The translations under genes and the position numbers were made by a program. Shown here piece after piece: positions 6,605-28,549 of a stretch of DNA of 64,000 nt; position 1 is the first letter of the stretch, and each line of letters starts with the position of its first letter. The notes below the pieces were generated by a model. That model saw only the letters and a list, made by a program, of their open reading frames with translations, searched no databases and had not been told where the DNA came from. The DNA lies in IMG/VR virus record IMGVR_UViG_3300032007_000008; one strand, given 5' to 3'. Source of the DNA: a virus (Duplodnaviria > Heunggongvirae > Uroviricota > Caudoviricetes).

Positions 6605-6611
6605 CTAAATA
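6605..6611 (+). promoter_or_regulatory. putative late promoter CTAAATA
   Basis: Similar to T4 late TATAAATA; same motif precedes related genes at 7752, 9437, 19441(-), 25923, 26927, 62776. Confidence 0.6.
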
Positions 6612-6632
6612 ATGAAAAACGAGATTTTTTCG

Positions 6633-7406
6633 ATGATTAATACAATAAACATATTCGATAGAAACAGGATAAAGAAAGCTTACGGAAATCTGTATAAGGG
6701 ACTTAGAACCGTAAACGAATCTGTTGACCTAGAAAAGGAATATGTAGATGCAGGAGGAGACGCTGACGATTTCGACATACCACAGCGTCCGCCAGATAAT
6801 AGCGAGATATTCGAGGAATGGTGTGATTTTCTGAGAGACGAAGGATACGAATCCAAAGATGGAAGCGTAAGTGCAATATTCGACAGCATGTCAATAATGA
6901 TGCGCTACAACGAAAAGACAAACCAGTTCGACTATTCTCTATCTCTTCTGTCTAGCGACGGAACTCCTTTTAGAACAATAGAGGGTTCCATTGACTATGA
7001 CAAGAATTCAGACCTAAGCACGAATCTAAACACTGCGATTGACGAGATATCCGACAAGGGGGAAGCTGCGAAGAAAGGCGAGATTTCTGAGGGATTTACC
7101 GACGACAACGACATAGCAGATTACATGTTTCCAGGATTTTCACAAATCACAGGAAGAAATCCGAACATGGATGACTATTCGTTCTATTTTTGGAACGAAC
7201 TTAGGATTGGAATGAGAAACAACGGAATTACGGAAAGAGAGAAACAAGACGAGATTATACGGCAGAACGCCGATGTGCTTAAGAAGATTTCCGATATGGC
7301 ATCCGAGCTTGAGACTGAGTTCAAGATGAAGCTTTCCTCGCTTGAAGAGGAGTTTGAAGAGAAGCGTCTGCATCTGGTGTCGGAAGCAGAACATCTTCTC
7401 AGATAG
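6633..7406 (+). CDS. putative late/internal head protein (IxxAY leader family)
   Basis: N-terminus MINTINIFDRNRIKKAY...VNES nearly matches the 9468 protein; acidic. Confidence 0.7.
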   Translation: MINTINIFDRNRIKKAYGNLYKGLRTVNESVDLEKEYVDAGGDADDFDIPQRPPDNSEIFEEWCDFLRDEGYESKDGSVSAIFDSMSIMMRYNEKTNQFDYSLSLLSSDGTPFRTIEGSIDYDKNSDLSTNLNTAIDEISDKGEAAKKGEISEGFTDDNDIADYMFPGFSQITGRNPNMDDYSFYFWNELRIGMRNNGITEREKQDEIIRQNADVLKKISDMASELETEFKMKLSSLEEEFEEKRLHLVSEAEHLLR

Positions 7407-7441
7407 TTTTCACAACCATAGGATAAAAACAACAGTACATT

Positions 7442-7467
7442 GAAGACCCCCTTCGGGGGGTCTTTCT
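7442..7467 (+). terminator. intrinsic terminator
   Basis: GAAGACCCCC-TTCG-GGGGGTCTTTC hairpin. Confidence 0.7.
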
Positions 7468-7488
7468 CTATTATGGAGGAAAAAAAAG

Positions 7489-7749
7489 ATGAACGAAGCA
7501 ACTAAGATAGAAAAATACTACAACCACGAAAAGCTTCTGACGGCCATCTTCAAGATGGAGCAGATGCATGGGCTTTCGGTTGACGAAAGGGTCGATGAAA
7601 AGATGAGGATATGCGCCAAGCAGCTATGTCAGCATTATAGGCGTCTGGCAATATGCATATTGACAAAGGAGCTTCCTCAAAAGATAGATGGTGTTGAGCA
7701 GATACTGAAGGCTGAGAACATACCAACCATGTTTTCGCAGTATACCTAA
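7489..7749 (+). CDS. hypothetical protein
   Basis: 86 aa ORF with GGAGG RBS. Confidence 0.7.
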   Translation: MNEATKIEKYYNHEKLLTAIFKMEQMHGLSVDERVDEKMRICAKQLCQHYRRLAICILTKELPQKIDGVEQILKAENIPTMFSQYT

Positions 7750-7783
7750 CCCTAAATAGTGTATATTTACATCATATCAACCG

Positions 7784-9049
7784 ATGCAGTATTCACGAGA
7801 GCAAAACACCCGCATGATTGCGGAAGCATATACGAAAATGTATGAAGCCGAAGTGCCGTCAAAGCACTACGGCTTTTATGTCCTTTCTCCAGACAAGAAG
7901 CTTATTGAGGAAAATCCAAGCCTATTCTACAGTACGAAGCGTGGACAGGATGTTGATATTTCCCAAGAATACTATGAGCCAGAACTTCTTGGAGGAAGGG
8001 ATTATGACGACGAGGGAAACCCATCTGAGAGGAAATACTTCTATGAATGGGATGGTAATGTTGATTATGGCAATCTCGATTCCTCTGTGCCAGAAGAAGC
8101 CATGTTCTACATAAACGGCGGCAGCATACTGGTAGTTTATGAATACGAAAACGGAGTTCAGAAAAACCCACGGTTTTTCAAAGCTCTACAGCGTGGGTGG
8201 AGAGAACTTTCGGACGACGGAACAAATACCCTCATGGTGAAGCTTTCGTGGTTCAAGAATGGCAAATCGATGTCGTGGGACGAGATATCATCGTTTATAG
8301 ACGATTCTCAGAAAGTCGCAAAGCAGTATGAGCAGCTAAAGAAAGAGAATCTTGTCACCGACGGAACAAGACCAAATGGCTCCGTGGCTATTCGAGTAGG
8401 CGGAAAAGACGAAATATGGAAGTCTCCGATAGCTGCGATAAAATACTATAAGTTTGCGGCATCGGAAACCGACGGTTCGGAATCGCAACGCTACAGCAAA
8501 ATAGCATATAGACTTCAAAACGGAGAAACGGAAGTTTCGGACGACACATCCGTGGTTCAGGAAAGCGATTGGACGAACACCATGCCTGACCAGAATCCGG
8601 ATGGATACGCTTTTGGAGTAATGCCATATTTCATAAAATACGAAGATGGCGGATTCGTCCCCTATCACCTTTCAAGCAGAAAGTTCGTGGAAAATGACAA
8701 GGAGATAATGGTTATAGAGCTTAAGGACTATCTTGTGTCCATAACGAATGCGATAGCTTCGAGAAATCATTCTGTTCCTTTCAACGTTTCCGCAGAAAAG
8801 ACGGATAACGGACTTCTTGTCCTTGACGGTGACGAGGTGAGAATCGCTCAGATGTTCAACCATTGCATTTTGGTTTCGCTTGACGGTAATCCAGACGGAA
8901 ATTCAAAGTTGTCCGATTCTGAATCGAAGTCATATGTTGTTCTTGGGGTGAATTCTCCAGACGACGAAAGCAGCATAATGGAAATACTACAGTCGGTTGT
9001 GGACAGCTGCGATGGCATGGATGGCTTTACGAACGGTTATTCGAAATAG
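7784..9049 (+). CDS. putative late/internal head protein (IxxAY leader family)
   Basis: CTAAATA at 7752; leader RMIAEAYTKMYEA; internal VQES. Confidence 0.75.
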   Translation: MQYSREQNTRMIAEAYTKMYEAEVPSKHYGFYVLSPDKKLIEENPSLFYSTKRGQDVDISQEYYEPELLGGRDYDDEGNPSERKYFYEWDGNVDYGNLDSSVPEEAMFYINGGSILVVYEYENGVQKNPRFFKALQRGWRELSDDGTNTLMVKLSWFKNGKSMSWDEISSFIDDSQKVAKQYEQLKKENLVTDGTRPNGSVAIRVGGKDEIWKSPIAAIKYYKFAASETDGSESQRYSKIAYRLQNGETEVSDDTSVVQESDWTNTMPDQNPDGYAFGVMPYFIKYEDGGFVPYHLSSRKFVENDKEIMVIELKDYLVSITNAIASRNHSVPFNVSAEKTDNGLLVLDGDEVRIAQMFNHCILVSLDGNPDGNSKLSDSESKSYVVLGVNSPDDESSIMEILQSVVDSCDGMDGFTNGYSK

Positions 9050-9070
9050 CATTGGTATTTTAGAATAATG

Positions 9071-9099
9071 AAAGGGGGCTATTTTAGCCCCCTTTTTTC
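9071..9099 (+). terminator. intrinsic terminator
   Basis: GGGGGCTA...TAGCCCCC stem followed by T run. Confidence 0.75.
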
Positions 9100-9136
9100 T
9101 ATTCCCAAAATATCGCAAATATGATATTATATTTCC

Positions 9137-9433
9137 ATGGAAAAGAAAAATGAAAACAGAATGGCAAAAGCTGTCGAAAAGATAGAATCTGCCAATTTCA
9201 AGTTGGGAAAGGCAGCAAGGCTGGTGGGGCAGGCGCTTGAACTGTTTCAAAACGGATGTTCCGAGATGGAATGGGACGACATGATTACCATCGACATCGA
9301 AAGCGCATTGGCCAAACTTGGATACATCAACGGACAGTGCATGGAGTATCTCCATGAATGCAAGCTGGAGCTTGAGGGAAAGCTTGATTCCGACGGAAGA
9401 TGTGACCCAAAATATTCCATAGATGCGTTATAA
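9137..9433 (+). CDS. hypothetical protein
   Basis: 98 aa helical ORF. Confidence 0.65.
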   Translation: MEKKNENRMAKAVEKIESANFKLGKAARLVGQALELFQNGCSEMEWDDMITIDIESALAKLGYINGQCMEYLHECKLELEGKLDSDGRCDPKYSIDAL

Positions 9434-9467
9434 ACACTAAATAGTTCAAAATGCACGAGTGTTAACT

Positions 9468-10154
9468 ATGATAAATTCAATCAACAATTTTGAACGCAGT
9501 TCTATAAAAAAGGCGTATAGAGGAATGTATGATTCGAAAAAGACCCAGATAAACGAGTCCGTCGATAACGCAAATGAATGTGGCGGCGTATCTGAAAACG
9601 ATTCTTCTTCCTTAACAGCCCAGTCCATGGACGATGAAGTTGTGATATGGGACAACGGTGGGGAAACATGGGATAGGTATACGGTTACATTTCCAAACTA
9701 TGGCGGTGAGACCTGGGGAATGGACGAGCACCCCTCTCATCCTCAGGGATTTGGAACCTACAGCGGTGATTTTTCTGTAGAGCATCTTGACAGCTGCGAA
9801 AAAATAGGAAAGAGGATTTCCTTTGCAGAGCTGCCAGAGGCATGTCAGAAGTTCGTAAACGGGCTTCTTGAGCAGTTTAAGAATGAAGATGATGAACCGA
9901 CAGATGAAATTGAAACCCCAGACGGCGGTTCGGTTGACGAGGCCAATACGACAAATCTTTTGCCAAAATCCGAAGAGCTTCGCGAAAAGTCAAAAATTCT
10001 CGAACAGCAAATTGTAAAGATTGCCGAAATCAGTCAAAATGGCATAGAGAAGGTTTCGAACAGCGTCGAGCTTCTCGATTATCTTTCAGCCGCTGCCGAC
10101 TCTTTGCGGAAGACTGCCGATTCTATGGTTGCTGAAATAAGTAAATATCGATAA
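9468..10154 (+). CDS. putative late/internal head protein (IxxAY leader family)
   Basis: CTAAATA at 9437; leader MINSINNFERSSIKKAY...INES; DNGGETWDRYTV motif. Confidence 0.75.
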   Translation: MINSINNFERSSIKKAYRGMYDSKKTQINESVDNANECGGVSENDSSSLTAQSMDDEVVIWDNGGETWDRYTVTFPNYGGETWGMDEHPSHPQGFGTYSGDFSVEHLDSCEKIGKRISFAELPEACQKFVNGLLEQFKNEDDEPTDEIETPDGGSVDEANTTNLLPKSEELREKSKILEQQIVKIAEISQNGIEKVSNSVELLDYLSAAADSLRKTADSMVAEISKYR

Positions 10155-10179
10155 GAGCAATTCGTATTTTTCTTAAGAT

Positions 10180-10208
10180 GGAGGTGTTTTTCAACACCTC
10201 CTTTTTTG
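10180..10208 (+). terminator. intrinsic terminator
   Basis: GGAGGTGTT...AACACCTCC followed by T run. Confidence 0.75.
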
Positions 10209-10274
10209 TTATTGCGAAGTTTCGAAAACTGTGTTATAATAGTCGCCAAATTGAACAACTAACAGGAGCAAACT

Positions 10275-10862
10275 ATGGATAACACAACCTCGTCGTCAAA
10301 TGCGATTTCCAAGGATACACTCTACGAAATCGAACTCAAGGGTATCGACATACCAAACAGCGTAAAGGTGATTCTCGCAAAGGGGGCGCATCTGAACATG
10401 TCTGTTCATGGACACCGCCGTTTGGTGGACATGACAAAGAATGAGTTCAATGTTGTCATGAAGGCGTTCGCAACAAATGACCTTGATTTCCTTAACGAGA
10501 ATATCGTCGATAAGAACCGCGTTCTGATTCGTCTCGACAAGAACAGCGGTACATATACGGTCTTCTATTACGACCACTACGACAATGGTTTCGTCTGCAA
10601 AAGCAACCTTTCATCCGAAGAGACTGTGAAAGTTCTCATTACGAACGGTGTTGACCCGAACAGCATTTACGAAGACCCCAAGTCTGGCAAGATGCGATAC
10701 ACCGATGGTACGCCCCAGCCAACGACAACAGTCTGCACATCGTTTGACAATTCCGACAAGAGTTACGAAGACAGCAATTTCCACTGCCCCTACATCGATA
10801 CAAGGGACTTTATCGGCGGAAAATGCTATCGTTGTCCGGTACACTGCATGATTGTAGGTTAA
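10275..10862 (+). CDS. hypothetical protein with C-terminal Cys/His cluster
   Basis: Promoter TTGCGA-17-TATAAT and AGGAG RBS. Confidence 0.7.
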   Translation: MDNTTSSSNAISKDTLYEIELKGIDIPNSVKVILAKGAHLNMSVHGHRRLVDMTKNEFNVVMKAFATNDLDFLNENIVDKNRVLIRLDKNSGTYTVFYYDHYDNGFVCKSNLSSEETVKVLITNGVDPNSIYEDPKSGKMRYTDGTPQPTTTVCTSFDNSDKSYEDSNFHCPYIDTRDFIGGKCYRCPVHCMIVG

Positions 10863-10874
10863 TAGGAGGGTGAA

Positions 10875-12107
10875 ATGGACGAGAACCTTTCCGATATCAA
10901 GCCGCGTTACCTGATAATGGTGACTGCCGACAACCATAACAAATTCTACAAGCAGATTCCCCATGGAAGCTCATGGACTGCCGAATACGGTAGGGTTGGT
11001 TGCAGTTCGCAGACAAGAGATTATCCGATGTCTCTCTGGGACAAGAAGTACAACGAGAAGTTGAGGAAAGGCTATATCGACCAAACCGAACTCGTAAAGG
11101 AACTCATAACTGAAAATACCGACGACAGCGGAAAAACAGAAGCCGAGATAGAGAACAAAGCCATTGCGGATGTCGTCAAAAGGTTGCAGAAATATGCAAA
11201 GGTCGCAATCAGCGAAAACTACACCATTTCTGACAACAAGGTAACGCAGTCAATGGTTGATGAGGCACAGCGTGTATTGTCAGAACTTGTCGGCATAACT
11301 ACCGTTGCCGATTTCAACGAGAAGCTTCTCAAGCTGTTCAACACGATTCCGCGAAAGATGGATAAGGTTCAGAACTACCTCTCCACAAAGACATCGGAGT
11401 TTGCGGAAATCATAAGCCGCGAGCAGGACATTCTCGATGTCATGAAGGGACAGGTCGTTCAGAACACGCAAGTGGTAAAGAAATCTTCAGATTCGTCGCA
11501 GAAGAAGGAGACCGAGACGATACTTGACAAGATGGGTCTTGAGTTCTACGAATGCGACAAACCTGAGATTGAGATAATCAAGAAGAAGCTCGGTTCGTGC
11601 GCTTCTATGCTCAAGAACGCATGGCGCGTCGTGAACAAGAAGACGCAGGCCAAGTTCGACAAGTTCGTAAGTGACAATAAGGTCAATGAGCGCGACCTTC
11701 TGTGGCATGGCTCTCGAAACGAGAATTGGTGGAGCATCATCAACCTTGGCCTCGTTCTCAACCCGACAAATGTCGTTATAAGCGGTCATATGTTTGGCCA
11801 TGGGCTGTATTTCGCAAATCGTGCGAAGAAAAGTTTCGGGTACACTTCCGGAAATGGAAGCTATTGGGCGCGTGGGTATTCTAATACGGCATTTCTGTCG
11901 CTGTTCGACGTTGCCATGGGCAAGTCATTTTATACGGCAAACCACAAATACGAGTATTATGACTACAACTGGAACACGTTTACCAAAAAGCATCCGAACT
12001 GCTTGAGCTTTTTCGCAAAGGGAGGTGCAGACCTTCGAAACGACGAGATTATCGTATACCGTGACGACCAATGCACGATAAAGTATCTTGTTGAATTGAG
12101 CTGCTAA
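10875..12107 (+). CDS. PARP-family ADP-ribosyltransferase (WGR + regulatory + catalytic domains)
   Basis: NKFY/YGRVG WGR-like domain; LLWHGS, GHMFGHGLYFA, KSFGY, LRNDEIIVY give the H-Y-E triad. Confidence 0.9.
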   Translation: MDENLSDIKPRYLIMVTADNHNKFYKQIPHGSSWTAEYGRVGCSSQTRDYPMSLWDKKYNEKLRKGYIDQTELVKELITENTDDSGKTEAEIENKAIADVVKRLQKYAKVAISENYTISDNKVTQSMVDEAQRVLSELVGITTVADFNEKLLKLFNTIPRKMDKVQNYLSTKTSEFAEIISREQDILDVMKGQVVQNTQVVKKSSDSSQKKETETILDKMGLEFYECDKPEIEIIKKKLGSCASMLKNAWRVVNKKTQAKFDKFVSDNKVNERDLLWHGSRNENWWSIINLGLVLNPTNVVISGHMFGHGLYFANRAKKSFGYTSGNGSYWARGYSNTAFLSLFDVAMGKSFYTANHKYEYYDYNWNTFTKKHPNCLSFFAKGGADLRNDEIIVYRDDQCTIKYLVELSC

Positions 12108-12117
12108 TTGGAATATC

Positions 12118-13563: not shown

Positions 13564-13572
13564 GGTTGTCAT

Positions 13573-14267: not shown

Positions 14268-14298
14268 CAAAAAGGACGCCAGCGATGGCGTCCTTTTT
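14268..14298. terminator. bidirectional terminator
   Basis: AAAAAGGACGCCA...TGGCGTCCTTTTT between convergent genes. Confidence 0.75.
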
Positions 14299-14653
14299 AT
14301 TTGGATTCTTTAGTTGGTCTACAGTATTTGCAGTTCGGAAGATGGAGAATGCTTCTCCCATGGTACAGATGATACTTTAGATATTCATGACGTTCGCCGC
14401 GAACTGAAATCTCCACCAACGAAAACTCGCCAGAAGCATCAGTCTCGATTCCGTTTTCTTTTTCATAGAATCCGCACAGTAACATTGAAACTGCGACTGC
14501 CACGGATGCGAACAATATCTTTATGTTATGCTTTTTCATGTTTTGGCTTTCTGTTTGTCGGGATTCGTAGATTCCTACGAAATACAACACAATAATCAAT
14601 GCAAACAACAGCAGTGCAATGCCAAGAATGGAAAACATGACAAATTCAGCCAT
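14297..14653 (-). CDS. membrane protein with C-terminal HxPxCxxC
   Basis: Two hydrophobic segments. Confidence 0.65.
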   Translation of the reverse strand: MAEFVMFSILGIALLLFALIIVLYFVGIYESRQTESQNMKKHNIKILFASVAVAVSMLLCGFYEKENGIETDASGEFSLVEISVRGERHEYLKYHLYHGRSILHLPNCKYCRPTKESK

Positions 14654-15437
14654 CAGAAATACCCTTCGCTATTATAATGTCTTCTTTATTAATCTTTTTG
14701 TATTTCTCGTTTTCGTGGTATCCTTCCGATGCGTACATTATCTCACAGAGATTTTTTAGAAGGTCGTCTGTGCTATAGCTTCCATTTGAGCCATCCCCCT
14801 TACAACGTGCGCAGTTTTTTAGTTCCATTTCAATCTTCTGCAATGTTACCGCCATTGCGAGAGCTTCATCATATAGGCTTTGGTATCTTAAGTTGGGTAC
14901 GCATTCCATTCTCTTGATTGACTTAACCCTCTCGTCGAGAACCCTAGCCCACTTGTCTATGTGACGTTGGAGGTCATATCCCTTTTCTTCGTGTAGCGTT
15001 CGTATGTCGGAGGAAAGCCTTTCCAGCCTGTTTATATTATCCTCCATAGTCCAGTACTGTGGATTTACGTTTTTGTTTGGTGCATATGGAAGTGCCTTAT
15101 AATCGCAATCGTTGTCTTCGTATGACGATGTTGATTCATGCAAGAGCTGTTCTTCCCCGTTGTCGCTATTTTTGCAGTCTGCCGAAGATTTCAGCATATC
15201 CAATATTGAAACTGCCTTTTCCGTCTTTGCCTTTTTGTCGTCATCGATAACTTCATCGAAAACATGAGGCTCATAGAGCCATTTTATAAATCGTCCAGCG
15301 GATACTCCCTCATGAACGTTATAGACGTATTCGCGCTTTTCCTTTGTGTATGCATCTATTGCATTGTCAACTGTCTTGTAAAAAGCAAAGTTTGTTACTA
15401 CTTCGGGTTGCGGAAGATTTTTGTCTATGTGTATCAT
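14646..15437 (-). CDS. hypothetical protein
   Basis: 263 aa ORF. Confidence 0.7.
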   Translation of the reverse strand: MIHIDKNLPQPEVVTNFAFYKTVDNAIDAYTKEKREYVYNVHEGVSAGRFIKWLYEPHVFDEVIDDDKKAKTEKAVSILDMLKSSADCKNSDNGEEQLLHESTSSYEDNDCDYKALPYAPNKNVNPQYWTMEDNINRLERLSSDIRTLHEEKGYDLQRHIDKWARVLDERVKSIKRMECVPNLRYQSLYDEALAMAVTLQKIEMELKNCARCKGDGSNGSYSTDDLLKNLCEIMYASEGYHENEKYKKINKEDIIIAKGISDG

Positions 15438-15468: not shown

Positions 15469-16869
15469 TTAGACCTTCAGACCCATTATCATTCCGTCGC
15501 GAGCTGTGTCCTGAAGTTCCGTAAACCCTATCTTCTTCGCAAGGGATACCACAGCCTCTTTCGAAGTTCCGCTATCAGGCTGAACTTTCATCAGAAACTG
15601 CCATATTCCTCTTTTTTCTGTTATGTCGGATAAAGCCTTCCGAGCTATCATCTTAGCATATCCAAGACCGCGAAACGGCTTCTCCACGTGAATGTATTCA
15701 ATGTTGCATATCAGCGAATATGGGTCGAAGAAAGACATGCACCGCTCGTCGAAATCCTCTATTTCGCCAGAGAATTTAGATGCTATCTCATCAGAATATC
15801 CGACGTTTATGTCCATGTAAGCAACATATGTTCCCTCTTTCGTCATAACGGAATAGCCATTTCCATCAGAGTCGAACTTAAGCTCGTCAACATCCCTTGT
15901 TGAGTCTTCGTTCACCGTATCCCGTCCAAGTAGAGATTTTTTCTCGTCACACCATTTTCTGAAAAGTACGTTTCCGTTGCTGTAAGCCTCGGACTCCACG
16001 TTTTCAAGCTCAGGGTTCTCGTCTATCGTGCCATCTTTGTCGAGATTTTCAAATTCGCGTCCTCCAACTACATGCTGATGGTGGTGAAAAAGTTCGTGGG
16101 CGAAAGTTCTCAGTATGTCCTTCGGATGGCGACCGCTTACAAATATCCTTATTATGCAACCGTCGCAGTCGTAGTTTCCGGTCTTTCCGAGAACGTCCTG
16201 CGGCTCATCCAAAAGAACTATCTTCGGCCTTGGGGAGCAGATGCATCCATTCCTGTCGAAATAGTCCATCATGTCGTAGAAGAGAGGTTCTATACTGTCG
16301 TTTCCAAAAGATTCGTTTATGTCGCCAGACATGTCGAACGAATCTATCAGAGAGACAATCTTTTTTTCGTGACTCTTGTCGGACGACTTATAGAAAAAGT
16401 TCTGTTGAGTCCCCTTTGTCCATTTGGACTTGGCTATCGTCTTTTTCTTCAGACCAAACTGTCCGTAGAAATCCAAAAGACCCTTTCCACCGTCCTTATC
16501 GACAGCCCACCACACGTTTTCGTACTCTGAAAGGATTTTATTTATGAGACGCTTTCCATAGCCCTTCGTGAAAGATTGTATTTCCGCGAGGAGGATTATG
16601 TCCTTTGTCTCGCTGTCGTTCGGAACGTGTTTCAGCACACAGAGAGCACGGCATTTGCCATCCTTGAATATTCCGTACCATTTCTTCTTTTTGTCTTTGA
16701 AGTATTTTACGAATTGCGCTCTACTATAGCGTTCATTTTCATTGTAAGACTTTGCGTCATCGAGAATTTTCTTAACCTCATCATCTGACTTCACAAATTC
16801 AAATGACGCCTTTCCAGACGATTCAAAAAGAACCGTCCTATATGCGTTCTGTATGGTCAACCGTTCCAT
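15469..16869 (-). CDS. polyvalent protein: GNAT-like + HExxH metallopeptidase + GNAT (IxxAY leader family)
   Basis: KGYGKRL..FY GNAT-like motif; LRTFAHELFHHHQH; IHVEKPFRGLGYAK; leader TIQNAY; GTAAATA upstream. Confidence 0.8.
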   Translation of the reverse strand: MERLTIQNAYRTVLFESSGKASFEFVKSDDEVKKILDDAKSYNENERYSRAQFVKYFKDKKKKWYGIFKDGKCRALCVLKHVPNDSETKDIILLAEIQSFTKGYGKRLINKILSEYENVWWAVDKDGGKGLLDFYGQFGLKKKTIAKSKWTKGTQQNFFYKSSDKSHEKKIVSLIDSFDMSGDINESFGNDSIEPLFYDMMDYFDRNGCICSPRPKIVLLDEPQDVLGKTGNYDCDGCIIRIFVSGRHPKDILRTFAHELFHHHQHVVGGREFENLDKDGTIDENPELENVESEAYSNGNVLFRKWCDEKKSLLGRDTVNEDSTRDVDELKFDSDGNGYSVMTKEGTYVAYMDINVGYSDEIASKFSGEIEDFDERCMSFFDPYSLICNIEYIHVEKPFRGLGYAKMIARKALSDITEKRGIWQFLMKVQPDSGTSKEAVVSLAKKIGFTELQDTARDGMIMGLKV

Positions 16870-16887
16870 TTCTAGTTTCCAGAATAT

Positions 16888-17061
16888 TTACTTGGAGGCG
16901 TTCTTCGACACTTCCGCGTTTTTTCTATGTCTCACACAGCGTCCGTAGGATTCCGCTATGTTGAATCTCTCCATCTGCATGGATGAAGATTTCACGGTTT
17001 CTTTAGAGTTTCCGTAGTAGACTCCCCTATATGCGTTTTCGATTGTTCTTCTCGTATTCAT
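16888..17061 (-). CDS. 57 aa protein made of two IxxAY-like leader copies
   Basis: Manual translation MNTRRTIENAYRGVY...RFNIAESYGR...; below the ORF-track cutoff. Confidence 0.55.
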   Translation of the reverse strand: MNTRRTIENAYRGVYYGNSKETVKSSSMQMERFNIAESYGRCVRHRKNAEVSKNASK

Positions 17062-17091: not shown

Positions 17092-17556
17092 TTAGACATA
17101 GACAGGTTCGATTTTCCCCCTAATCGTGTTTTCGAATGGTATGAATCCTACTGTTTCGTTTCCATCTCGGTACATTGCCGCAAGCTTGTTTGAATATACA
17201 GGCGGCGTTCGTTTATTTGTGGCCATCGTTATGTGCGGATTCGCGTTATTGCAGCCTATGTCTTCAACGTCGCCGGTCTTCACGAGAGCTGCAACGCAAT
17301 TCATATCGTACACGATTCCTTCCGTGTTTAATATAACAGCGGAACCGAACAGCGAGTTGTCGAAATCTGCAACCTGCGACGCACCATATGCCAATGTGAG
17401 ATGGTCGCAATACAGCTTATCGTAACTATTTCCGAACTTTGCACGTACAACGTTGGTCAAAAGCTCGGAACTTTGCTGCTCAAGCTTCACGCAGATGTAT
17501 TTTATTGTTTCGGAATTCATATTATTCAGAAAGCTCGTTGCAAATTTCTTCCGCAC
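17092..17556 (-). CDS. 2H phosphoesterase (tRNA-ligase CPDase-like)
   Basis: Two HxT motifs: DHLTL and PHITM; true start may be the downstream MNSE. Confidence 0.75.
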   Translation of the reverse strand: MRKKFATSFLNNMNSETIKYICVKLEQQSSELLTNVVRAKFGNSYDKLYCDHLTLAYGASQVADFDNSLFGSAVILNTEGIVYDMNCVAALVKTGDVEDIGCNNANPHITMATNKRTPPVYSNKLAAMYRDGNETVGFIPFENTIRGKIEPVYV

Positions 17557-19402
17557 GTTCAGCTATTTTTTCACTCCATGCTTCGGGATTGGCCACAAAC
17601 TCTTCAAGAGAACCCTGTTCCGACGATAATTCGTATACTATGAATCCTGCTATGGAATCGTCGCATCCGAGCATGTCCTTAACTATCGAAAATGCCTTCT
17701 TTTCCAAATCCGTATATCCTTCGCAGATGTCGTCGGACTCGTCGATGGAGGCATTCTTGCTTCTGTCGTACACTGCTTCTATTCCGAGCATTGAGGCTAT
17801 GTCGCGTCCTGTCGCCGTTCCGCTCAATATCTTCGCCCTGAGGGAATTCTTCTCGCCCATGTTGACGGACTCGTTTGCCATTCCTCCATTCTCAGAACGA
17901 ATCTTGTCAAGTTCCGCGTTGATTTGGCGAACCTCGTCCTGTACTACCGCCATCATCGAGTCGAAAACCCTCGCCGCATCCTCAGGATTGTGGAGTCCCC
18001 AGTTCGCCATGTAGTTTATGGATGTGTTCGTAGTCTCTTCGTATCCATATGTCATAGAGACGAGCCAAGCTGTCATTTCCGCCTCCTGTTCCTGGTCTCC
18101 GTACATTTTCTTCTTGGAGTACTTAGACCCAGGCCAATGGCACAGAGAGTGCGTAAGCTCATGAATCATCGTCTTAACTAGGTCTGAGTTTTCGGTGGCT
18201 CCTGCAAGAACTCGGATTTTCTTTCCGTTTTCTGCGGAATATCCGCGAGCACCACCCCTTATGTCTTCGACACCGAAGTCTATTCCGTTATTTTTGCATA
18301 CGCGGCGAATTGCTTCGGCAAGTTCAAGCGTAGCTTTTGTTGGATAGCCTGTATCGTCGTACCAGCTCATGTCTATCGGCTTTCCATCATCGTCTGTCGT
18401 GGTTGTGTCAACGTCGTTCGTCTTTGTTGGGTATTCATCCTTCGTGCCAGGCATTGGTTCGGTAAAGCGAACGTCGCAAAACGTCGATTCCCACTTGAAT
18501 TTTATGAATGTCTGATGACGGCTACCGTACATGAGTATTCTTCGTCTGAGAACATCCTTCTGTATTCCATTGAGTTCGTCAACGGATTTCTTTCCAACTT
18601 CATCTAGGAACTGCTTGGTTATGAATTCCTTGTCCGCAGACTTTCCGGCCGAACCACCACGGAATCCGCCTCCGCTGTCCTTTACGCACAATGTTATGAA
18701 CTTCGCATCGGCATTGACCGTTCTCTTGAATGTGCGTTTCCACGTTCCGGCAGCTTCCACGAGAGTGGCCTGCGGGTCTTGAATCATTATAAGAATAGTG
18801 TTGTTGAACGAATACAAACGGCCTCCGTTTGCGGCCAGCCTGTCTCTGAATCCTATAATCTGCTTTATCTTTTTCTTGAACTCGTCCGACGAAGTTATAT
18901 TCATCAGAGTCATCTTGAAATCTCTGAGCTTGTTTTGCAGTTCTGCGGCAAGCTCCTTCGTGTTGACACGATTTCCGTCAGGCAGCTCCACTGTGGATGC
19001 GGCGGTGTCTTCTCCACCACCGCTTATCAGCTTCTTAAGTTCCTCTTCGAGTGTATCGAGAATTCCCGGAATGGCAGATGCATCTTCGCCTGTTTCAGCA
19101 GCGATTTCCTCAAGAACCTTCTTGACTTTTGTGTTTAGAACAGCCCTTGGGCGGTCGTCCCAGTCAACTGCGGCAGGGCTGTTGGAGAATTTGTCCCATC
19201 TCACGCCATGCCTGTCCAGCATTGCCTTGTGTCCCCACGTGTCTAGCTGTCCCCTATCGACAACGAATTTTCCGTGGGTCTTCTTGTCCTTCGGGTTTGT
19301 GAACTTTCCGACTCTGAATATGTCGGGCAGTGCTTCGTCAATATTTGTGTTTTTAGATGCCAGATATGCTTCGCATATCCTTCTGTTCTCAAGATAGTTC
19401 AT
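17522..19402 (-). CDS. ArdC-like ssDNA-binding domain + HExxH metallopeptidase (IxxAY leader family)
   Basis: YSFNNTILIMIQDPQATLV...W...RTV ArdC-N motif; GGARGY; HELTH; EQEAE...YMANW; CTAAATA at 19441-19447. Confidence 0.8.
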   Translation of the reverse strand: MNYLENRRICEAYLASKNTNIDEALPDIFRVGKFTNPKDKKTHGKFVVDRGQLDTWGHKAMLDRHGVRWDKFSNSPAAVDWDDRPRAVLNTKVKKVLEEIAAETGEDASAIPGILDTLEEELKKLISGGGEDTAASTVELPDGNRVNTKELAAELQNKLRDFKMTLMNITSSDEFKKKIKQIIGFRDRLAANGGRLYSFNNTILIMIQDPQATLVEAAGTWKRTFKRTVNADAKFITLCVKDSGGGFRGGSAGKSADKEFITKQFLDEVGKKSVDELNGIQKDVLRRRILMYGSRHQTFIKFKWESTFCDVRFTEPMPGTKDEYPTKTNDVDTTTTDDDGKPIDMSWYDDTGYPTKATLELAEAIRRVCKNNGIDFGVEDIRGGARGYSAENGKKIRVLAGATENSDLVKTMIHELTHSLCHWPGSKYSKKKMYGDQEQEAEMTAWLVSMTYGYEETTNTSINYMANWGLHNPEDAARVFDSMMAVVQDEVRQINAELDKIRSENGGMANESVNMGEKNSLRAKILSGTATGRDIASMLGIEAVYDRSKNASIDESDDICEGYTDLEKKAFSIVKDMLGCDDSIAGFIVYELSSEQGSLEEFVANPEAWSEKIAERAEEICNELSE

Positions 19403-19469
19403 CTGTTTGTGCCATTCGCCGTAAATAAGGCATATGGCACTATTTAGGGTTTTTTGACTCTAATGCTGT

Positions 19470-20552
19470 TTATCTTGAGACAGAATCGCGCAGCTCTATC
19501 ATGTAGTCTACGACATCATCCACGTTCGATATGGAATTTGTCTTTGGATTGTACCAAAACGTGTACAGAATATAGAAGATATAAAAAAGTTCGTACAGAT
19601 TTCTCTTTCGTTTGCGTCTGTCCACCACTATCTTATCTTCGGTTACACCCCAATTTGAATAAAACGGAACACCATACGTCTTTACGGTCTTTCCGGCCAT
19701 TAGAGCCTCAAATCCGAATTGGGACGAACATACGTATACAGTATCCGAAATGTTTATCAGAGAATATGGATTGACTGGAAAAGTAACCGGTATAACCCTA
19801 CCGTTTCGGCTCATTCCCTGGTAATAACCCCGTTGGCAAGAACCTCTGCACATCGAATCTGGATGTGTTTTCACAAGTATATCCGAATCTGGATTTTCGT
19901 CTATTGCGTCGGCAAGCATTCTTTTGAAAGTTGAATCGTCTGCGAGACCTTTTGATATGGCGTAGTCTCCATACGACTGGTCGATTACAAGAACCTTTTT
20001 GGAGTGTTTTCCGAAATCGAAGTCTGGCATGGCCAAAGGCTGATGGTTGTATTTCGAAATCTTGTTATTGACTATCTTTTCAATAATCCTCTTTGATTCA
20101 TTCAGCTCGGTGTCTCCGATGTTCAAAGAGTCGTCATTAAGCATGTTTTCAATTCGCGTTGGACGAGTAGCGTCGAAATAATACCCAAGGGTGTCAACCG
20201 TCAGAGAGCACGGCTGTAGCAGATTTTGCGGAATCGCAGAATCAGCCCATGTGCCGTAGCTTCTTATGAAGCCATCTTCACAAAGAAGCAACGCCGTTTC
20301 ATCATGCGCCATTGCATACCGCATCGATGCGAAGTTATTGGCATGAAGGCCGTTTCCCCAAAGAATGGCGGCATCGTAGCTTTTTGAGCTTGGATTGCTA
20401 TTGAATGTGCTTTTTGAGAAAATCTTGTTTATGTGAATCCACCTCTGCGGATTCAATATCGACACAGCCATGTCTTCGTATACAGAAAAATTGCTCTGTA
20501 TGTCTCTTGATGCAAGGGATTCGAGATTTTTTGAAAATTCTGTTTTGTCCAT
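19470..20552 (-). CDS. KpsC-like capsule glycosyltransferase (single beta-Kdo transferase domain)
   Basis: EDGFIRS, YFDATRP, ISKYN, VLVIDQ, VKTHPD, SQFGFEALM, YGVPFYSNWGVTED. Confidence 0.88.
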   Translation of the reverse strand: MDKTEFSKNLESLASRDIQSNFSVYEDMAVSILNPQRWIHINKIFSKSTFNSNPSSKSYDAAILWGNGLHANNFASMRYAMAHDETALLLCEDGFIRSYGTWADSAIPQNLLQPCSLTVDTLGYYFDATRPTRIENMLNDDSLNIGDTELNESKRIIEKIVNNKISKYNHQPLAMPDFDFGKHSKKVLVIDQSYGDYAISKGLADDSTFKRMLADAIDENPDSDILVKTHPDSMCRGSCQRGYYQGMSRNGRVIPVTFPVNPYSLINISDTVYVCSSQFGFEALMAGKTVKTYGVPFYSNWGVTEDKIVVDRRKRKRNLYELFYIFYILYTFWYNPKTNSISNVDDVVDYMIELRDSVSR

Positions 20553-20556
20553 TGGC

Positions 20557-20943
20557 CTATATCCTGACGAACCAGCAGTTGCTCTTGATGCTTTTCGCAT
20601 CGCCCTCTAGTGAATTCTTGTCATATTCTATCGTGGCTATCGCTTCATGCTCTCCGCAGTCTTCGCATACCCCGCTGGAAGACAGACTTTCTGCGAGTTC
20701 CTTTACGGTTATTCCTCCTTTTACATATCCGTCTTCGCACATGAACAGCAAGCAACTGCCTCCTCTGACGTAGCTATCGGAAACAGTCTTTCCGAAATCA
20801 TTTGACGGCACATATTCGATGAACCTCATGAACGTGTCATCGCCATCTATAGTTCCGTTGGCTATGAGGCTTTCAATCTTCCTTGAAAGTTCATTCGGCT
20901 TCCACATGCAGCGACTGATGTCGTCGTAAATTATCGTGACCAT
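20557..20943 (-). CDS. hypothetical protein
   Basis: 128 aa, CxxC. Confidence 0.65.
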   Translation of the reverse strand: MVTIIYDDISRCMWKPNELSRKIESLIANGTIDGDDTFMRFIEYVPSNDFGKTVSDSYVRGGSCLLFMCEDGYVKGGITVKELAESLSSSGVCEDCGEHEAIATIEYDKNSLEGDAKSIKSNCWFVRI

Positions 20944-21587: not shown

Positions 21588-21590
21588 CCG

Positions 21591-22276: not shown

Positions 22277-22302
22277 TGTCTGTTGTTCCTTTTCGCTGTT
22301 TG

Positions 22303-22602: not shown

Positions 22603-22663
22603 CAGAATCCTCTTAGTCTATTATGAGATATGTACTGTGTGAACAGTCATCACATCTGAATGT

Positions 22664-23391: not shown

Positions 23392-23474
23392 AGGCAGGCT
23401 CCTTCTCCCCTTTTGAACTCGCCATGGCTCTTGCCGTAGAGAAGTTCGGTGTGGATTTCAAGCTCGCGTCCATG

Positions 23475-23795: not shown

Positions 23796-23834
23796 TTGTC
23801 TTACTTCTCCTCGGATTCCACGTTCGCGTCCATG

Positions 23835-24344: not shown

Positions 24345-24538
24345 CCTTTTCTCCTTTCGGTATTTTTGGTTTCCATTTTCGCGCCGCAGTTCGGACAGAA
24401 GCGGAATTCGTCCGCAAAGCTGTCGATTTCCCGCTTCGCCTCAGAAGTGCTGTCCCATCCGGCGTATTCCGAATGTCCGCATGCCGAGCAGTATGCGTAC
24501 TCGTATTCGGGTCCTGTAGTCCAACGTCCCTTTTTCAT
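24341..24538 (-). CDS. zinc-ribbon protein
   Basis: GRW...YCSACG...FCPNCGAKM. Confidence 0.75.
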   Translation of the reverse strand: MKKGRWTTGPEYEYAYCSACGHSEYAGWDSTSEAKREIDSFADEFRFCPNCGAKMETKNTERRKG

Positions 24539-24553
24539 GCTCCGCCTCGGTTT

Positions 24554-24808
24554 TCAGTATGTCTCCTCTGCCGTGAACGAATCATCGTCTCTTGCGTCGC
24601 AGCAGCTGCATCTCTTGACGCAGTAGGTTCCTCCAAGTCCGCCGTAGGACCTCCACTCCCAGTTGTGGTGTCCCCTTATGCGGCAAACGATTCCTCCGAG
24701 CCACACCCTCAGCTTGTAGAGATAGTAATCGCCTATGTCAGAATCGGATATTCCGTAGATGGCTACGGCTACCACTGCGACCAGTATAAGAACAATAGGA
24801 ACTGTCAT
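24554..24808 (-). CDS. membrane-anchored zinc-finger protein
   Basis: TM + CRIRGHHNW...CSCC. Confidence 0.65.
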   Translation of the reverse strand: MTVPIVLILVAVVAVAIYGISDSDIGDYYLYKLRVWLGGIVCRIRGHHNWEWRSYGGLGGTYCVKRCSCCDARDDDSFTAEETY

Positions 24809-25155
24809 GCCTTTTGCGTCTCCTCTTTTGCGTTTTCGTTTTCAGTTTCAGAACCTTCCGCCGAGGCACCGTAAGCCGCCTCTTTCAGAAGCCACCACGC
24901 CATGTTGTTGACACCGTATGCGAATTCGGGATTTCCTCCGGAATACGGCGACTCGTCAACGGCTGTCTTCGAGTTTTCGTACAGGTCGCAGTTTCTTGGA
25001 GGGTTTGACGCGATTGCCTCGTTCGCCGACATCTCTATCTGCCTCAGAACGTCCCTTGCGGAAGCGGAATCGAGCGTCTTCTCTCCGTCAAGGTACGACA
25101 CGGCAAGCTCCCTTATTACAGACAGCGTGTTCTTCAATGCACCGTATGTCGTCAT
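24805..25155 (-). CDS. hypothetical protein (PRNCD motif)
   Basis: PPRNCDLY. Confidence 0.65.
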   Translation of the reverse strand: MTTYGALKNTLSVIRELAVSYLDGEKTLDSASARDVLRQIEMSANEAIASNPPRNCDLYENSKTAVDESPYSGGNPEFAYGVNNMAWWLLKEAAYGASAEGSETENENAKEETQKA

Positions 25156-25445
25156 CCCTCTTCCTCCTCTGCCTTCCAGCCGTTGTTCGTCCTGGCCTCT
25201 TCGACCAGCCTGAGAATCTTTCTGCTACAGTCGTTGACCTTCAGGACAAGCTCGTAGTGCTCCTTCTGCTGTCTCTCGCTCCAGCCTTCTGAGCTTCCGT
25301 TTTCGTCTCCGAAACCCCAAAGCTCCTTTTGCGCGTCTTCTTTCGACCCCAACGCCTCAACAAGCTCCTTGAGAATCTCAGAATTGTCCCTTCCGCTTTT
25401 TTCAAAAAACATGCCTTCAAACCTCTTTTTCGTGCCGTTTTGCAA
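25152..25445 (-). CDS. hypothetical protein
   Basis: In operon; exact start uncertain. Confidence 0.55.
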   Translation of the reverse strand: MQNGTKKRFEGMFFEKSGRDNSEILKELVEALGSKEDAQKELWGFGDENGSSEGWSERQQKEHYELVLKVNDCSRKILRLVEEARTNNGWKAEEEEG

Positions 25446-25446
25446 A

Positions 25447-25632
25447 TCAGAGCGTTATTCCGCCGTCGTTCGCCCTTGCGGTGGCTATCGCCAGGTCTAT
25501 CTTGGCGCACAGCTTCTCCGAAGTCATGAGGGTCTCGCCGTCCCTCCACCACACGGCTCCGCGTATGGACTCAAGGTAGAATTTCGCGTCGTCAAGCGCG
25601 TCGAGAAGAATCTGCACGTTCTTTCCGTCCAT
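25447..25632 (-). CDS. hypothetical protein
   Basis: 61 aa. Confidence 0.6.
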   Translation of the reverse strand: MDGKNVQILLDALDDAKFYLESIRGAVWWRDGETLMTSEKLCAKIDLAIATARANDGGITL

Positions 25633-25643
25633 CGCACTACCCC

Positions 25644-25808
25644 CTACTTCCTGTTGTCAACAAGCTCTTCCAGTATGCCGAGCAGTTCAGCCGCAGCAAG
25701 ACCGGCGCAAAGAGCCGCGACGCTTCCGCCGAAGAAGCACCATGCGCATGCCAAAATCCTTATGGCAGACTTCACGACGCTTACAACGAGATGGCCGGTG
25801 GAGTTCAT
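25644..25808 (-). CDS. small membrane protein
   Basis: Manual translation MNSTGHLVVSVVKSAIRIL...AELLGILEELV; first gene after the promoter at 25864-25892. Confidence 0.6.
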   Translation of the reverse strand: MNSTGHLVVSVVKSAIRILACAWCFFGGSVAALCAGLAAAELLGILEELVDNRK

Positions 25809-25863
25809 ATGCGACTTGCCGTCCTTTCCGAAATTTTCGAGTATTTTTCCATGACGGCGAGCA

Positions 25864-25892
25864 TTATACCATCTTTCCGCCTTTTCCGCAAC
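25864..25892 (-). promoter_or_regulatory. sigma70-type promoter of the 25.8-19.5 kb leftward operon
   Basis: TTGCGG-17bp-TATAAT on minus strand. Confidence 0.65.
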
Positions 25893-25914
25893 GGGTTTTC
25901 TTGAGAAAATCGCA

Positions 25915-27015
25915 GTGAAACCCTAAATATGGACAAAGGGTCGCATTGCATTCGACAGGGAAACGACCAAAGAAGGAAAACAAACACGATGTCATACAGC
26001 AAGACAAACAGAACGATAGCGGAGGTGGCGTAATGCTTATAGCGGGGAGAAATACGATGCTCAAAGAGGGGGGGGGGGGCTGGTGCCAAGAAATATATCC
26101 AAGATGGGCTTATTGCGATGTGGGACGGAATCGAAAACGCTGGTTGGAGAAAGCATGACGATAATATACTGACATGGAAAAATCTCGGCTCGCTTGGAAG
26201 TGACTATGACGCAACTAGACAAAGCGGTGCATGGCAAAAAGACGGAGCTATTATATCCACCGACATGGGTAATTCTACCGTTTTTGTCATTCCAAATAAT
26301 ATTATGGGCGGGCAAATGAAAGGCGAATGGACTTACGAAATAGGCTTCACGCCAACGCATAAATGGAAATCGAACTATCATGGACTCTTGGGCAATCACA
26401 TCAACCAGAAAGGTATAGTAGGCGGTCAATATGAAAATGGAGAAATTGTGTTCAACCTATTTTCTCCAGTCGTACAGCTTTATAGAGTGCGAGCAGATGT
26501 TTTTGAAGATAATATCAGACATACGATTTCGCAAGCTGCGTCAAATACATCTCGAACCGCAACTACGTGGAAAGATGGGGCTATAGTAAGTTTATCTACA
26601 GATGTGGATGTTCTTTTGACCATAACCTCGCCTTATGCCTTCATCGGGTCTGCGGAGGGCGATAGAGTAGCCGGTACAGACCGTGTTTTCGACGGTGTGA
26701 TACATTTCCTGCGCATCTACAACCGCAAATTGACAGACAAAGAAGAAAAACACAACCATTCCATTGATAAGATTCGCTATGGACTTCCGTCATGACATGA
26801 GATTCATGGACTGCTGCGGCTGAAACCAGACCACAAAGCAACTCTCCGCCGCGCATTAGCCATTCCGCCAAGCGCAGATGCTTATCGAACGGCGGCGCAT
26901 CACCACGCTTAAACCACGGTGAAACCCTAAATATGGGCAAAGGGACGCATTGCGTCCGACAAGGAAAAACGAACACGATGTCATACAACAAGACGGACAG
27001 GACGATAGCGGAGGC
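25915..27015 (+). repeat. ~110 bp imperfect direct repeat (25915-26025 vs 26919-27015): late promoter + leader + first 12 codons
   Basis: GTGAAACCCTAAATATGG...ACACGATGTCATAC...GATAGCGGAGG in both copies. Confidence 0.85.
26033..26795 (+). CDS. LamG/concanavalin-like protein, frameshifted at a G12 tract (26068-26079)
   Basis: Removing one G joins MLIAGRNTMLKEGGG to AGAKKYIQDGLIAMWDGIENAG; C-terminal FDGVIHFLRIYNRKLT is LamG-like. Confidence 0.7.
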
Positions 27016-28549
27016 TTACGGAAAGATGCTCTGCGGAGAGGGAAGGCGGCCGGACGAGGGAAAGGCCGAACGGATAGCCGCCGACAGGATGAAGGACGGG
27101 CTTGAGGCCGACGGCGAAGAGAGGCAGGACGCACAGACGGGGCAGGCCCTGAACGACGCCGCGCTCAAGGTCAAGGAGCTTATAGGGTGGAATCCGGTCG
27201 GCGGAGTGTGCATCGTCGGCGGTTCGTTCCGTCCGAAGTACGGCGGACGCGGATGGAACGGAAACGGATTCGCGCCGATGACCCTTGAGCAGTTCGTGTC
27301 GTCGGCGGTGCGCTGCTGCACGGCTGAGGCTCACGATGTCGTCAGGCAGACTGCGGACATAGTAGGCTCGGAGGTCTACCTTGCTGACGAGAACACCTTC
27401 CAGGGACTCGTCAAGGATGTCATGGCCGACGGAATGACGGCTGACGACTACCCCGAGTACTACATGCACAGCGTCGCGCTCGTGTACCACGGTCACGACG
27501 GCTCGCTGACGCTCATGGAGATTCTGAACGACTCCTACTACGGACAGCAGCCCTTCCTCTTCGAAGACCCTAGGGGTCGCGACTTCATACTTTCCAAGAT
27601 TCTCGAAGCCTATCCGTTCCTCAGGCCGTATGCCGACAATTCCGACAGGCGCTTCATCGGCTTCACGCTTCCTCCGTCCCTGTCCAGGGACATAGAGGGC
27701 GCGGTGGCGAAGAGGGGGCAGAGACAGCCTTCCCTCGCCGACAGCGAATGGGAGGAGAGGAACGTCTACGACAAGTTCGACCCAAGAACGGGAGAGTACG
27801 ACACGCAGTACAACATCGACGTGAGGAACGCCTACAGGGACAGGTATGGCGACGGCGATGGAGACGGCAAAAAGGAAACGGGAGGAAAGGTCTCGGAATC
27901 GTCAGCCCCATACGGGGACGACGACAGCATAAGGGACGTTGCCGCATGGTTCGGAGAGTGGCTTGAATCCTACGAGGACGGAAGCGAGACTTTCGCCGGA
28001 GACCACGGCTGGATTCTGAAAAGGCTTCTCAAGATAAAGGATTGGATGTACGCCAAGCTCGACGAGGAGCCTGTCGAGGGGGAGATGTCCGAATCGAGGG
28101 GTTTCGTCAGGAAGCTCGCCAACGGATGCTCGCTCCACGACCTCGGAGACGTTTTCGTGGTCACGGACAGGAACGGAAGGAACATAGGGCAGTGCAGAAC
28201 GGAAACCGAAGCCGAAGGCATAGCGGAAGAGCAGTCGGAAAGGTGGGAGCTTAAGGACGGCAGGCACATACCGCCTTCCGCAAACCTCTCAGACCCCGAG
28301 GAGAACCGATATTGGCAGAAGAAGTACAATGCAGCCAAGGACATGGAAGAATACGAAAAGCTCGCGTTCAGGTTCATCCATGGCGGAGGTCCGATAACGA
28401 AGATTTCGCTCGAAAGGCTTGCAGACCTCGCGGAGAAGTTCGGAAACCTGAAGCTCAGCTCGTTCATAAGGGACAACAGGGAGTCCCTGTATTGGGGGAT
28501 AGACCACCCTGACGGATGGGATGCCGCAAGGATGAGATACCAGCCCTAA
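26978..28549 (+). CDS. putative late/internal head protein (IxxAY leader family)
   Basis: CTAAATA at 26927; leader MSYNKTDRTIAEAYGKM; internal VSES, MSES. Confidence 0.75.
   Translation: MSYNKTDRTIAEAYGKMLCGEGRRPDEGKAERIAADRMKDGLEADGEERQDAQTGQALNDAALKVKELIGWNPVGGVCIVGGSFRPKYGGRGWNGNGFAPMTLEQFVSSAVRCCTAEAHDVVRQTADIVGSEVYLADENTFQGLVKDVMADGMTADDYPEYYMHSVALVYHGHDGSLTLMEILNDSYYGQQPFLFEDPRGRDFILSKILEAYPFLRPYADNSDRRFIGFTLPPSLSRDIEGAVAKRGQRQPSLADSEWEERNVYDKFDPRTGEYDTQYNIDVRNAYRDRYGDGDGDGKKETGGKVSESSAPYGDDDSIRDVAAWFGEWLESYEDGSETFAGDHGWILKRLLKIKDWMYAKLDEEPVEGEMSESRGFVRKLANGCSLHDLGDVFVVTDRNGRNIGQCRTETEAEGIAEEQSERWELKDGRHIPPSANLSDPEENRYWQKKYNAAKDMEEYEKLAFRFIHGGGPITKISLERLADLAEKFGNLKLSSFIRDNRESLYWGIDHPDGWDAARMRYQP

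Follow-up and report, generated by a model that had tools for sequence, protein, structure and literature searches.

A common N-terminal leader on seven proteins of an uncultured jumbo phage: a candidate tag for loading diverse cargo into the virion

Why should seven genes of one phage, encoding proteins that for the most part have nothing else in common, open with the same few residues? The question arises from a 64,000-nucleotide (nt) stretch (hereafter the window) of IMG/VR record IMGVR_UViG_3300032007_000008, which lies within a contig of 291,652 bp from an uncultured jumbo phage (Caudoviricetes). A first-pass annotation had noted seven open reading frames (ORFs) with the N-terminal motif R-x-I-x-x-A-Y and had read it as a tag for loading proteins into the phage head. 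All seven exist where it placed them, with starts at 6633, 7784, 9468 and 26978 on the plus strand (here g1, g2, g3 and g7) and at 16869, 17061 and 19402 on the minus strand (g4, g5 and g6). The results below are drawn from the window plus a few relatives.

Motif alignment of the seven leaders leaves only Ile, Ala and Tyr invariant: I-x-x-A-Y is present in each of g1–g7, with the Ile at residue 6–13. Among all ATG-initiated ORFs of at least 50 residues in the six frames of the window (n = 317), seven carry I..AY within their first 30 residues, and these seven are g1–g7; the composition-based expectation is 0.38 (P(≥7) = 1.7e-7). The Ile is preceded by an Arg at a distance of one to three residues, exactly two in four members and one or three in g1, g3 and g4, and E, K or N stands directly before the Ala. 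Ile, Ala and Tyr of the original motif therefore hold, but its fixed Arg spacing applies to four members only, and R-x(0-2)-I-x-[EKN]-A-Y describes the tag better. The codons of the three invariant residues differ synonymously among members (ATA, ATT and ATC for Ile; GCT, GCA and GCG for Ala; TAC and TAT for Tyr). Because these codons vary, the 5' untranslated regions (5'UTRs) are unrelated and the Ile shifts between residues 6 and 13, the tag is conserved at the protein level. Two other readings of the leader were dropped: an amphipathic helix, since the hydrophobic moment is not above that of shuffled sequences, and a resemblance to DUF4214/phycobilisome-linker helices, which is without Pfam support.

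Behind the tag, the protein bodies are unrelated by BLASTP with three qualifications: (i) g1 and g3 have a common 37-residue leader that is 54% identical; (ii) g4 and g6 share an HExxH region (BLASTP E = 0.006); and (iii) g5 has no cargo at all. The earlier wording 'otherwise unrelated' thus fits most of the family and fails at these three points. Gene g1 (6633..7406, plus strand; 257 residues, isoelectric point (pI) 4.4) has the leader MINTINIFDRNRIKKAYGNLYKGLRTVNE, followed by S, and an acidic body with a coiled-coil-like C-end that belongs to no known family. Gene g2 (7784..9049, plus; 421 residues; leader MQYSREQNTRMIAEAYTKMYE, followed by A) is an ORFan. In g3 (9468..10154, plus; 228 residues), the leader MINSINNFERSSIKKAYRGMYDSKKTQINE, followed by S, gives way to a hypervariable linker and then a phrog_4496 domain. 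Gene g7 (26978..28549, plus; 523 residues; leader MSYNKTDRTIAEAYGKML) continues through a charged linker into a body of no family and is GC-richer than the other members. Family, phrog, ESM Atlas (g2 and g7) and PADLOC searches returned nothing informative for g1, g2, g3 and g7. On the minus strand, g4 (15469..16869; 466 residues; leader MERLTIQNAYRTVLFE, followed by S) has an HExxH region between two GNAT domains; a single-sequence AlphaFold model of it was of no use (mean predicted local distance difference test score (pLDDT) 35). Gene g5 (16888..17061, minus) encodes a basic 57-residue protein with two copies of the tag, RRTIENAY and MERFNIAESY.

The largest member, g6 (17522..19402, minus; 626 residues; leader MNYLENRRICEAYLASKNTNIDE, followed by A), is ArdC-like, with an N-terminal ArdC-like domain and an HExxH zincin. 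It matches phrog_7245 'anti-restriction protein' (E = 5e-5), PF08401, the family of the ssDNA-binding N-terminal domain of ArdC, is on record for its homologues P0004–P0007, and the top fold match of its AlphaFold model (eight sequences, mean pLDDT 61) is ArdC of plasmid R388, a weak match (E = 2.5e-3). A profile search of PDB sequences gave no match. The zincin families PF18818 and PF20573 match g6 below their cut-offs; the HELTH of g6 (H414, E415 and H418) is invariant in the homologue alignment and has the HExxH form of zincins. In the model the tag is a detached helix (residues 2–16, pLDDT <50).

Comparison with relatives indicates that the tag is modular, missing from the g6 homologues and kept in strain variants with a hypervariable linker behind it. 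Homologues of g6 at 27–30% identity, namely P0002, P0003 and P0023 from the protein search and the IMG/VR loci L002–L004, are all without the tag; they start MALLNEE, MIRED or MKTLNEA, and their alignment to g6 begins behind the tag. The g3 strain variant P0012 (67% identical) retains R, IKKAY, MY and L-N-E-S, and in the 30 residues behind L-N-E-S its identity drops to ~40% with an indel, as in a linker. The g1 strain variants P0011 and P0029 also retain the leader. P0002 and P0023 are near-identical g6 homologues that differ by a module of ~45 residues; the shorter form has the junction S-L-N-E-S, so that the indel falls at a hydrophobic-N-E-S site.

Two stubs in the window bear on how the tag and its promoter may move. 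The first, at 25923..26033 (plus), duplicates over 95 nt of DNA the promoter and 5'UTR of g7 together with its first 12 codons; it encodes MSYSKTNRTIAEVA and then a stop (a 14-residue ORF) and lies upstream of a LamG-like gene (26118–26795). The second is g5, whose second tag copy, MERFNIAESY, resembles the g4 start MERLTIQNAY. Gene g5 is probably a recombination stub; it may be a remnant or a tag-only competitor. Together, the 25923 copy and g5 suggest that the promoter-plus-tag cassette recombines. After the 25923 stub, TAATG opens a short ORF that is out of frame with the LamG-like body through a G12 tract (26068–26079); 11 or 14 G in the tract would fuse the short ORF to that body, with a start MLIAGRNTMLKEGGGG. 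The stop codon of g5 forms part of the GTAAATA in front of g4.

We then considered the residues that follow the tag. In five of the seven leaders (VNES, MYEA, INES, LFES and IDEA), A-Y is followed within 20 residues by a hydrophobic-x-E-[S/A] site ([LIVMF]-x-E-[S/A]). These are the five sites that the first-pass annotation had named; g5 and g7 have none. Against a background of 0.0024 per residue, or 4.6% per 20-residue window, this gives p = 4e-6, and p = 6e-5 when g1 and g3 are counted once, for a pattern that was chosen after the data were seen, though modelled on the T4 rule, in which an (L/I)-x-E site for the prohead protease closes the leader. The tag itself reads I-x-E followed by A in g2, g6 and g7. 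Within the family bodies the same pattern occurs 11 times against ~5.5 expected. Such a ~2-fold excess means that counting alone gives no support for many internal joints, and the internal x-E-S 'joints' were dropped as a counting argument. Two internal sites of g6, A-N-E-S (509) and I-D-E-S (553), fall in low-confidence linkers of its AlphaFold model.

The tag is also linked to a promoter motif. CTAAATA stands 21–44 nt upstream of g1 (6605..6611), g2 (ACCCTAAATAGTG, 7752..7758, 25 nt before the gene), g3 (9437..9443, 24 nt) and g7 (ACCCTAAATATGG, 26927..26933, 44 nt) on the plus strand and of g6 (again ACCCTAAATAGTG, 19441..19447, 38 nt) on the minus strand, and GTAAATA stands 15 nt upstream of g4 (16885–16891, minus). 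An ATG at 6612 abuts the g1 motif, so that 6633 is the likely start of g1. Gene g5 has no such motif and lies inside the leftward operon headed by 19441..19447, which comprises g6, an untagged 2H phosphoesterase gene (17092..17520, minus), g5, g4 and two further ORFs. The [C/G]TAAATA that had been proposed 15–45 nt upstream of most members is thus found before six and not before g5. As a bare 7-mer, CTAAATA is not over-represented in the window. The extended motif AMMCTAAATAKKG occurs six times against 0.63 expected, and each copy faces a gene; two of the six precede untagged contexts, the LamG-like gene (25923) and a gene for a 354-residue acidic protein (62776). For the first-pass annotation, a tag no commoner in TAAATA genes than in others would have spoken against the proposal; within the window the tag occurs in seven of the ~12 genes of CTAAATA-headed units and in none of the ~109 other genes (Fisher p = 1e-8).

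The earlier suggestion that most members have a terminator of their own holds for four. Strong terminators follow g1 (an intrinsic terminator at 7442..7465), g2 (a two-way hairpin at 9070..9096), g3 (10180..10201) and g7 (a GC-rich hairpin then T10, read from the sequence at 28579..28617), all on the plus strand; g6, g5 and g4 share one operon. The 5'UTRs behind CTAAATA (6605–6633, 7752–7784, 9437–9468, 19402–19447 and 62776–62804) contain no clear Shine-Dalgarno sequence, and neighbouring early-type genes do have one (e.g. GGAGG before 7489). Messages of the CTAAATA units may start translation by another route.

How widespread is the tag? A profile of the seven leaders was run against 1.84 billion representative proteins and a set of 5.8 billion, and it found only the phage of the window, close strain variants and three unrelated repeat proteins (P0013–P0015); the last have internal repeats and were dismissed as chance matches. 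The sensitivity of this profile is low: g2 and g4 themselves missed E = 1e-3 in one search. The leaders matched no Pfam family. Megablast and tblastn against cultured phages found nothing for g2 and only a partial match in the zincin region for g4. In IMG/VR, neither the long g1/g3 leader, written as a degenerate DNA pattern, nor an early-promoter core pattern had a match, and viral, metagenome and genome collections had none for the g3 alignment and g1. A neighbour-gene search returned one unrelated phage, without the tag.

What, then, does the tag do? The best account, which we hold slightly more probable than not, is that R..I-x-[E/K/N]-A-Y plays in this lineage the part that the capsid-targeting sequence (CTS) plays in T4, as a lineage-specific analogue carried by virion-delivered proteins. 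Late timing, docking, cleavage and delivery are inferred, as follows. Late in infection, a gp55-type promoter (CTAAATA) would drive the genes for tagged products. The tag would dock these proteins to some part of the core or shell of the prohead during assembly, by which they would be enclosed, and a head-maturation protease would remove it at a nearby hydrophobic-x-Glu site, cutting before Ser or Ala. The cargo, comprising an ArdC-like anti-restriction protein, a GNAT-zincin-GNAT enzyme and four acidic proteins of no assigned role, would enter the next host with the DNA, and new cargo would be gained by recombination at the promoter-plus-tag cassette. The argument for delivery is best for g6: a late-made anti-restriction protein can be of use only when packaged.

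Several known systems have parallels. The T4 CTS is MKTYQEFIAE (PMC8442874). Like it, the window tag is a short conserved N-terminal leader on proteins that are otherwise unrelated, seven of them here; a T4-type late-promoter motif stands ahead of the genes, a hydrophobic-x-Glu occurs near the leader end, and the cargo includes an anti-restriction-type protein and looks exchangeable as a set. T4 late genes use a gp55-type promoter (TATAAATA-like, with no -35 box), which the extended CTAAATA resembles at the level of the motif, and in the T4-like Aeromonas phage Aeh1 CTAAATA serves as the late-promoter motif (PMC1524935). T4 IPI and P1 DarB are late-made anti-restriction proteins that are carried in the head (PMC3012670, PMC9024508). 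In P1, DarB's N-terminal 30 residues act as a packaging signal and the capsid protein is cut between Glu and Ser (PMC9024508). P1 resembles what is predicted for the window in that its head carries a late-made anti-restriction-type protein, the N-terminal signal exceeds nine residues and the capsid protein is cut at Glu-Ser. However, the Dar proteins are without a consensus N-terminus, whereas one is common to seven proteins here, and there is no sequence similarity.

The cargo itself recalls the 'polyvalent proteins', for which entry into cells together with the DNA is predicted and among which no pairing is commoner than that of an ArdC N-domain with a zincin (Iyer et al. 2017, PMC5512222): g6 combines an ArdC-like domain with HExxH, and g4 places a zincin between two GNAT domains. 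In contrast to polyvalent proteins, the modules of the window lie on separate genes with a common leader and not on one giant chain, and their zincin Pfam scores are below cut-off. Lastly, the giant phages SPN3US, phiKZ and 201phi2-1 have ejection proteins with long N-terminal propeptides that are cut at A/S/G-x-E (PMC5694885). These propeptides of head proteins end in x-Glu, and the paralogues gp53 and gp54 start with identical 15 residues; but the propeptides mostly exceed 100 residues and belong to paralogous families, whereas the window has a short tag on unrelated bodies. The concept is already in the literature for T4, P1 and giant phages.

The relatives of g6 offer a further view of this cargo type. 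L002–L004 are AT-rich phages with T4-type baseplate wedge genes, and in them a 2H phosphoesterase gene comes after the g6 homologue, as in the window. The homologue adjoins polyproteins of 1342–1776 residues with CCA-adding and RNA-ligase modules (L002:3470-7498, L003:4092-9422 and L004:169-4380), which start MTYDNFL, MTYVEFL or MKYDEFL, near the T4 tag. An upstream motif, (T/A)GTATTTATA, recurs before these polyproteins and before the baseplate wedge genes; since it precedes the latter, it is probably the late promoter of the lineage. This gene order suggests that g6-type cargo sits in a late, head-cargo-like cluster in L002–L004. A 61-residue gene with the sequence DIAK(I/L)LGVE.EY precedes the g6 homologue (L002:9733-11859, L003:9445-11519 and L004:4441-6510); near the C-end of g6, P0002 and P0003 this module occurs in fused form, flanked by two x-N/D-E-S/A sites.

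A number of observations weigh against a CTS-like role, and some of them leave the head-loading proposal of the first-pass annotation only partly upheld: modularity, the promoter link, the following site and the type of cargo agree with it, and the acidic cargo, the members without a site and the untagged promoter genes do not. All six cargo-bearing members are acidic (pI 4.4–5.7) and have 228–626 residues, only g5 being basic, whereas the T4 internal proteins (IPI–III) are small, basic and embedded in DNA. The tag is of 15–30 residues against ~10 in T4, and, as had been said from the start, its sequence is unlike that of T4; MKTYQEFIAE shares with it only I-A-E, in three members (g2, g7 and, by its second motif, g5). 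Two members, g5 and g7, have no [LIVMF]xE[SA] within 20 residues after the tag; gene 62804 and the LamG-like gene have the promoter motif without the tag. The putative late timing of the tagged genes rests on motif resemblance, and protein abundance may be low given CTAAATA-unit 5'UTRs without a clear Shine-Dalgarno sequence. Finally, the members found number seven, all within 22 kb, and the profile search found no further one elsewhere among the proteins of the 291-kb genome, which, at the low sensitivity of the profile, is weak evidence of absence.

A possible but clearly less probable account also assigns the tag to the virion. It treats R..I-x-x-A-Y as a virion-loading code that arose independently of the T4 tag in a sparsely sampled jumbo-phage lineage; together with CTAAATA it would form a portable cassette of late promoter and address tag, by which new cargo is captured through recombination, with the 25923 stub and g5 as fresh footprints.

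Next in standing, though unlikely, is the idea that some or all of the tagged proteins serve transiently in the head core or scaffold, being loaded by the tag and then degraded, and are not injected effectors. This would apply above all to the acidic, coiled-coil-ended g1 and g3, since low pI and helical C-ends recall scaffold proteins, and the doubled frequency of [LIVMF]xE[SA] in the family bodies (11 against ~5.5) points the same way. However, that internal enrichment is weak, g4 and g6 are enzyme or anti-restriction-type proteins for which there is no scaffold logic, and the genes lie far from head genes, as single units among early genes.

Slightly less credible still is that the tag serves as a handle for a partner outside the capsid, either an enzyme that modifies all seven proteins, such as the product of the radical S-adenosylmethionine (radical-SAM) gene at 2383–3531 or the GNAT domains of g4, or a chaperone that folds them, such as the Hsp70 encoded at 4–1179. 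The radical-SAM gene, the Hsp70 gene and the GNAT domains do lie within 3–10 kb of the family, and the invariant Tyr could serve as a modification site. Yet the radical-SAM protein is B12-binding/MiaB-like with no recognisable peptide-maturase signature, all of its scores being far below family cut-offs; its gene is 3 kb from the family, separated from it by transfer RNA (tRNA) genes and a DNA methylase gene, and is not under CTAAATA. Such a handle would also leave the late-promoter link and the following x-E-S site unexplained.

We regard as improbable the proposal that the common N-terminus is a passenger of a recombining expression cassette, kept for translation start without a Shine-Dalgarno sequence, with a peptide that has no sorting role. 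The duplication at 25923 does copy promoter, UTR and 12 codons as a single DNA block, g5 does resemble fused stubs, and the late 5'UTRs do lack a clear Shine-Dalgarno sequence. But outside g7 and its copy, the members resemble each other in DNA only at the promoter and where codons specify the invariant I, A and Y; their synonymous codons are not the same, their UTRs show no relation, and 6–13 residues separate the tag from the ATG; and neither gene 62804 nor the LamG-like gene, which use this promoter, carries the tag. A chance resemblance among short N-termini, for which only the small number of invariant residues (three) speaks, can be set aside, since it is refuted by P ~1e-7 from position alone and further by the link to the promoter, the retention of the tag in strain variants and the downstream-site enrichment.

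Other genes of the window include a tRNA cluster and those for Hsp70, Dam and N4/N6 methylases and the radical-SAM enzyme. Early units behind one repeated TTGACA-17-TATAAT cassette form a 30-kb array, and the tagged units are interleaved with early-type units because sigma-70-type promoters drive small genes between them. Rightward and leftward units meet at a two-way terminator (14269..14298). Directly after the g3 terminator, a sigma-70-type promoter (TTGCGA-17-TATAAT with TG, 10212–10240) heads a unit encoding a protein with WGR and PARP catalytic domains (PF00644, E = 8e-21; 10875–12107). A capsule-polysaccharide-synthesis gene (KpsS/KpsC-like, PF05159, E = 3e-37; 19470–20600, minus) lies directly upstream of the g6 promoter. 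A further CTAAATAG is located at 3484–3490, inside the 3' end of the radical-SAM gene, and faces tRNA-Glu/Pro/Asn genes (3926–4178).

Two other proteins have starts that recall a leader. The last large gene of the g6-to-g4 operon (14646–15437, minus) has NAIDAYTK at residues 25–31, one residue short of I-x-x-A-Y and similar to the AEAYTK of g2; on this resemblance it may be a decayed eighth member of the family. The comparison unit at 62776..63868 (plus) consists of the promoter motif ACACTAAATAGTG and the untagged, very acidic protein (62804–63868; 354 residues, pI 4.4), which starts MKDLGIIKEK with I-K-E at residues 7–9; its start may represent another kind of short leader, one that is T4-like.

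The novelty lies in a tag that is longer than and different from those known, borne by ArdC-like and GNAT/zincin proteins of a jumbo-phage lineage that has been sparsely sampled, and accompanied by visible cassette stubs; the two stubs give a rare view of possible turnover in a cargo set. If the tag sorts proteins into the head, sequence alone would mark those that are sent ahead of the phage genes, which would be first-strike anti-defence candidates, four of them without known relatives. If the CTS-like reading is true, the T4 logic of one tag and many cargoes arose, or diverged beyond recognition, in another giant-phage lineage, and a second, longer tag would be available for trials of loading foreign proteins into capsids. 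If the tag is instead an independent loading code, it would represent a natural plug-in system that delivers large acidic enzymes and anti-defence proteins with the genome.

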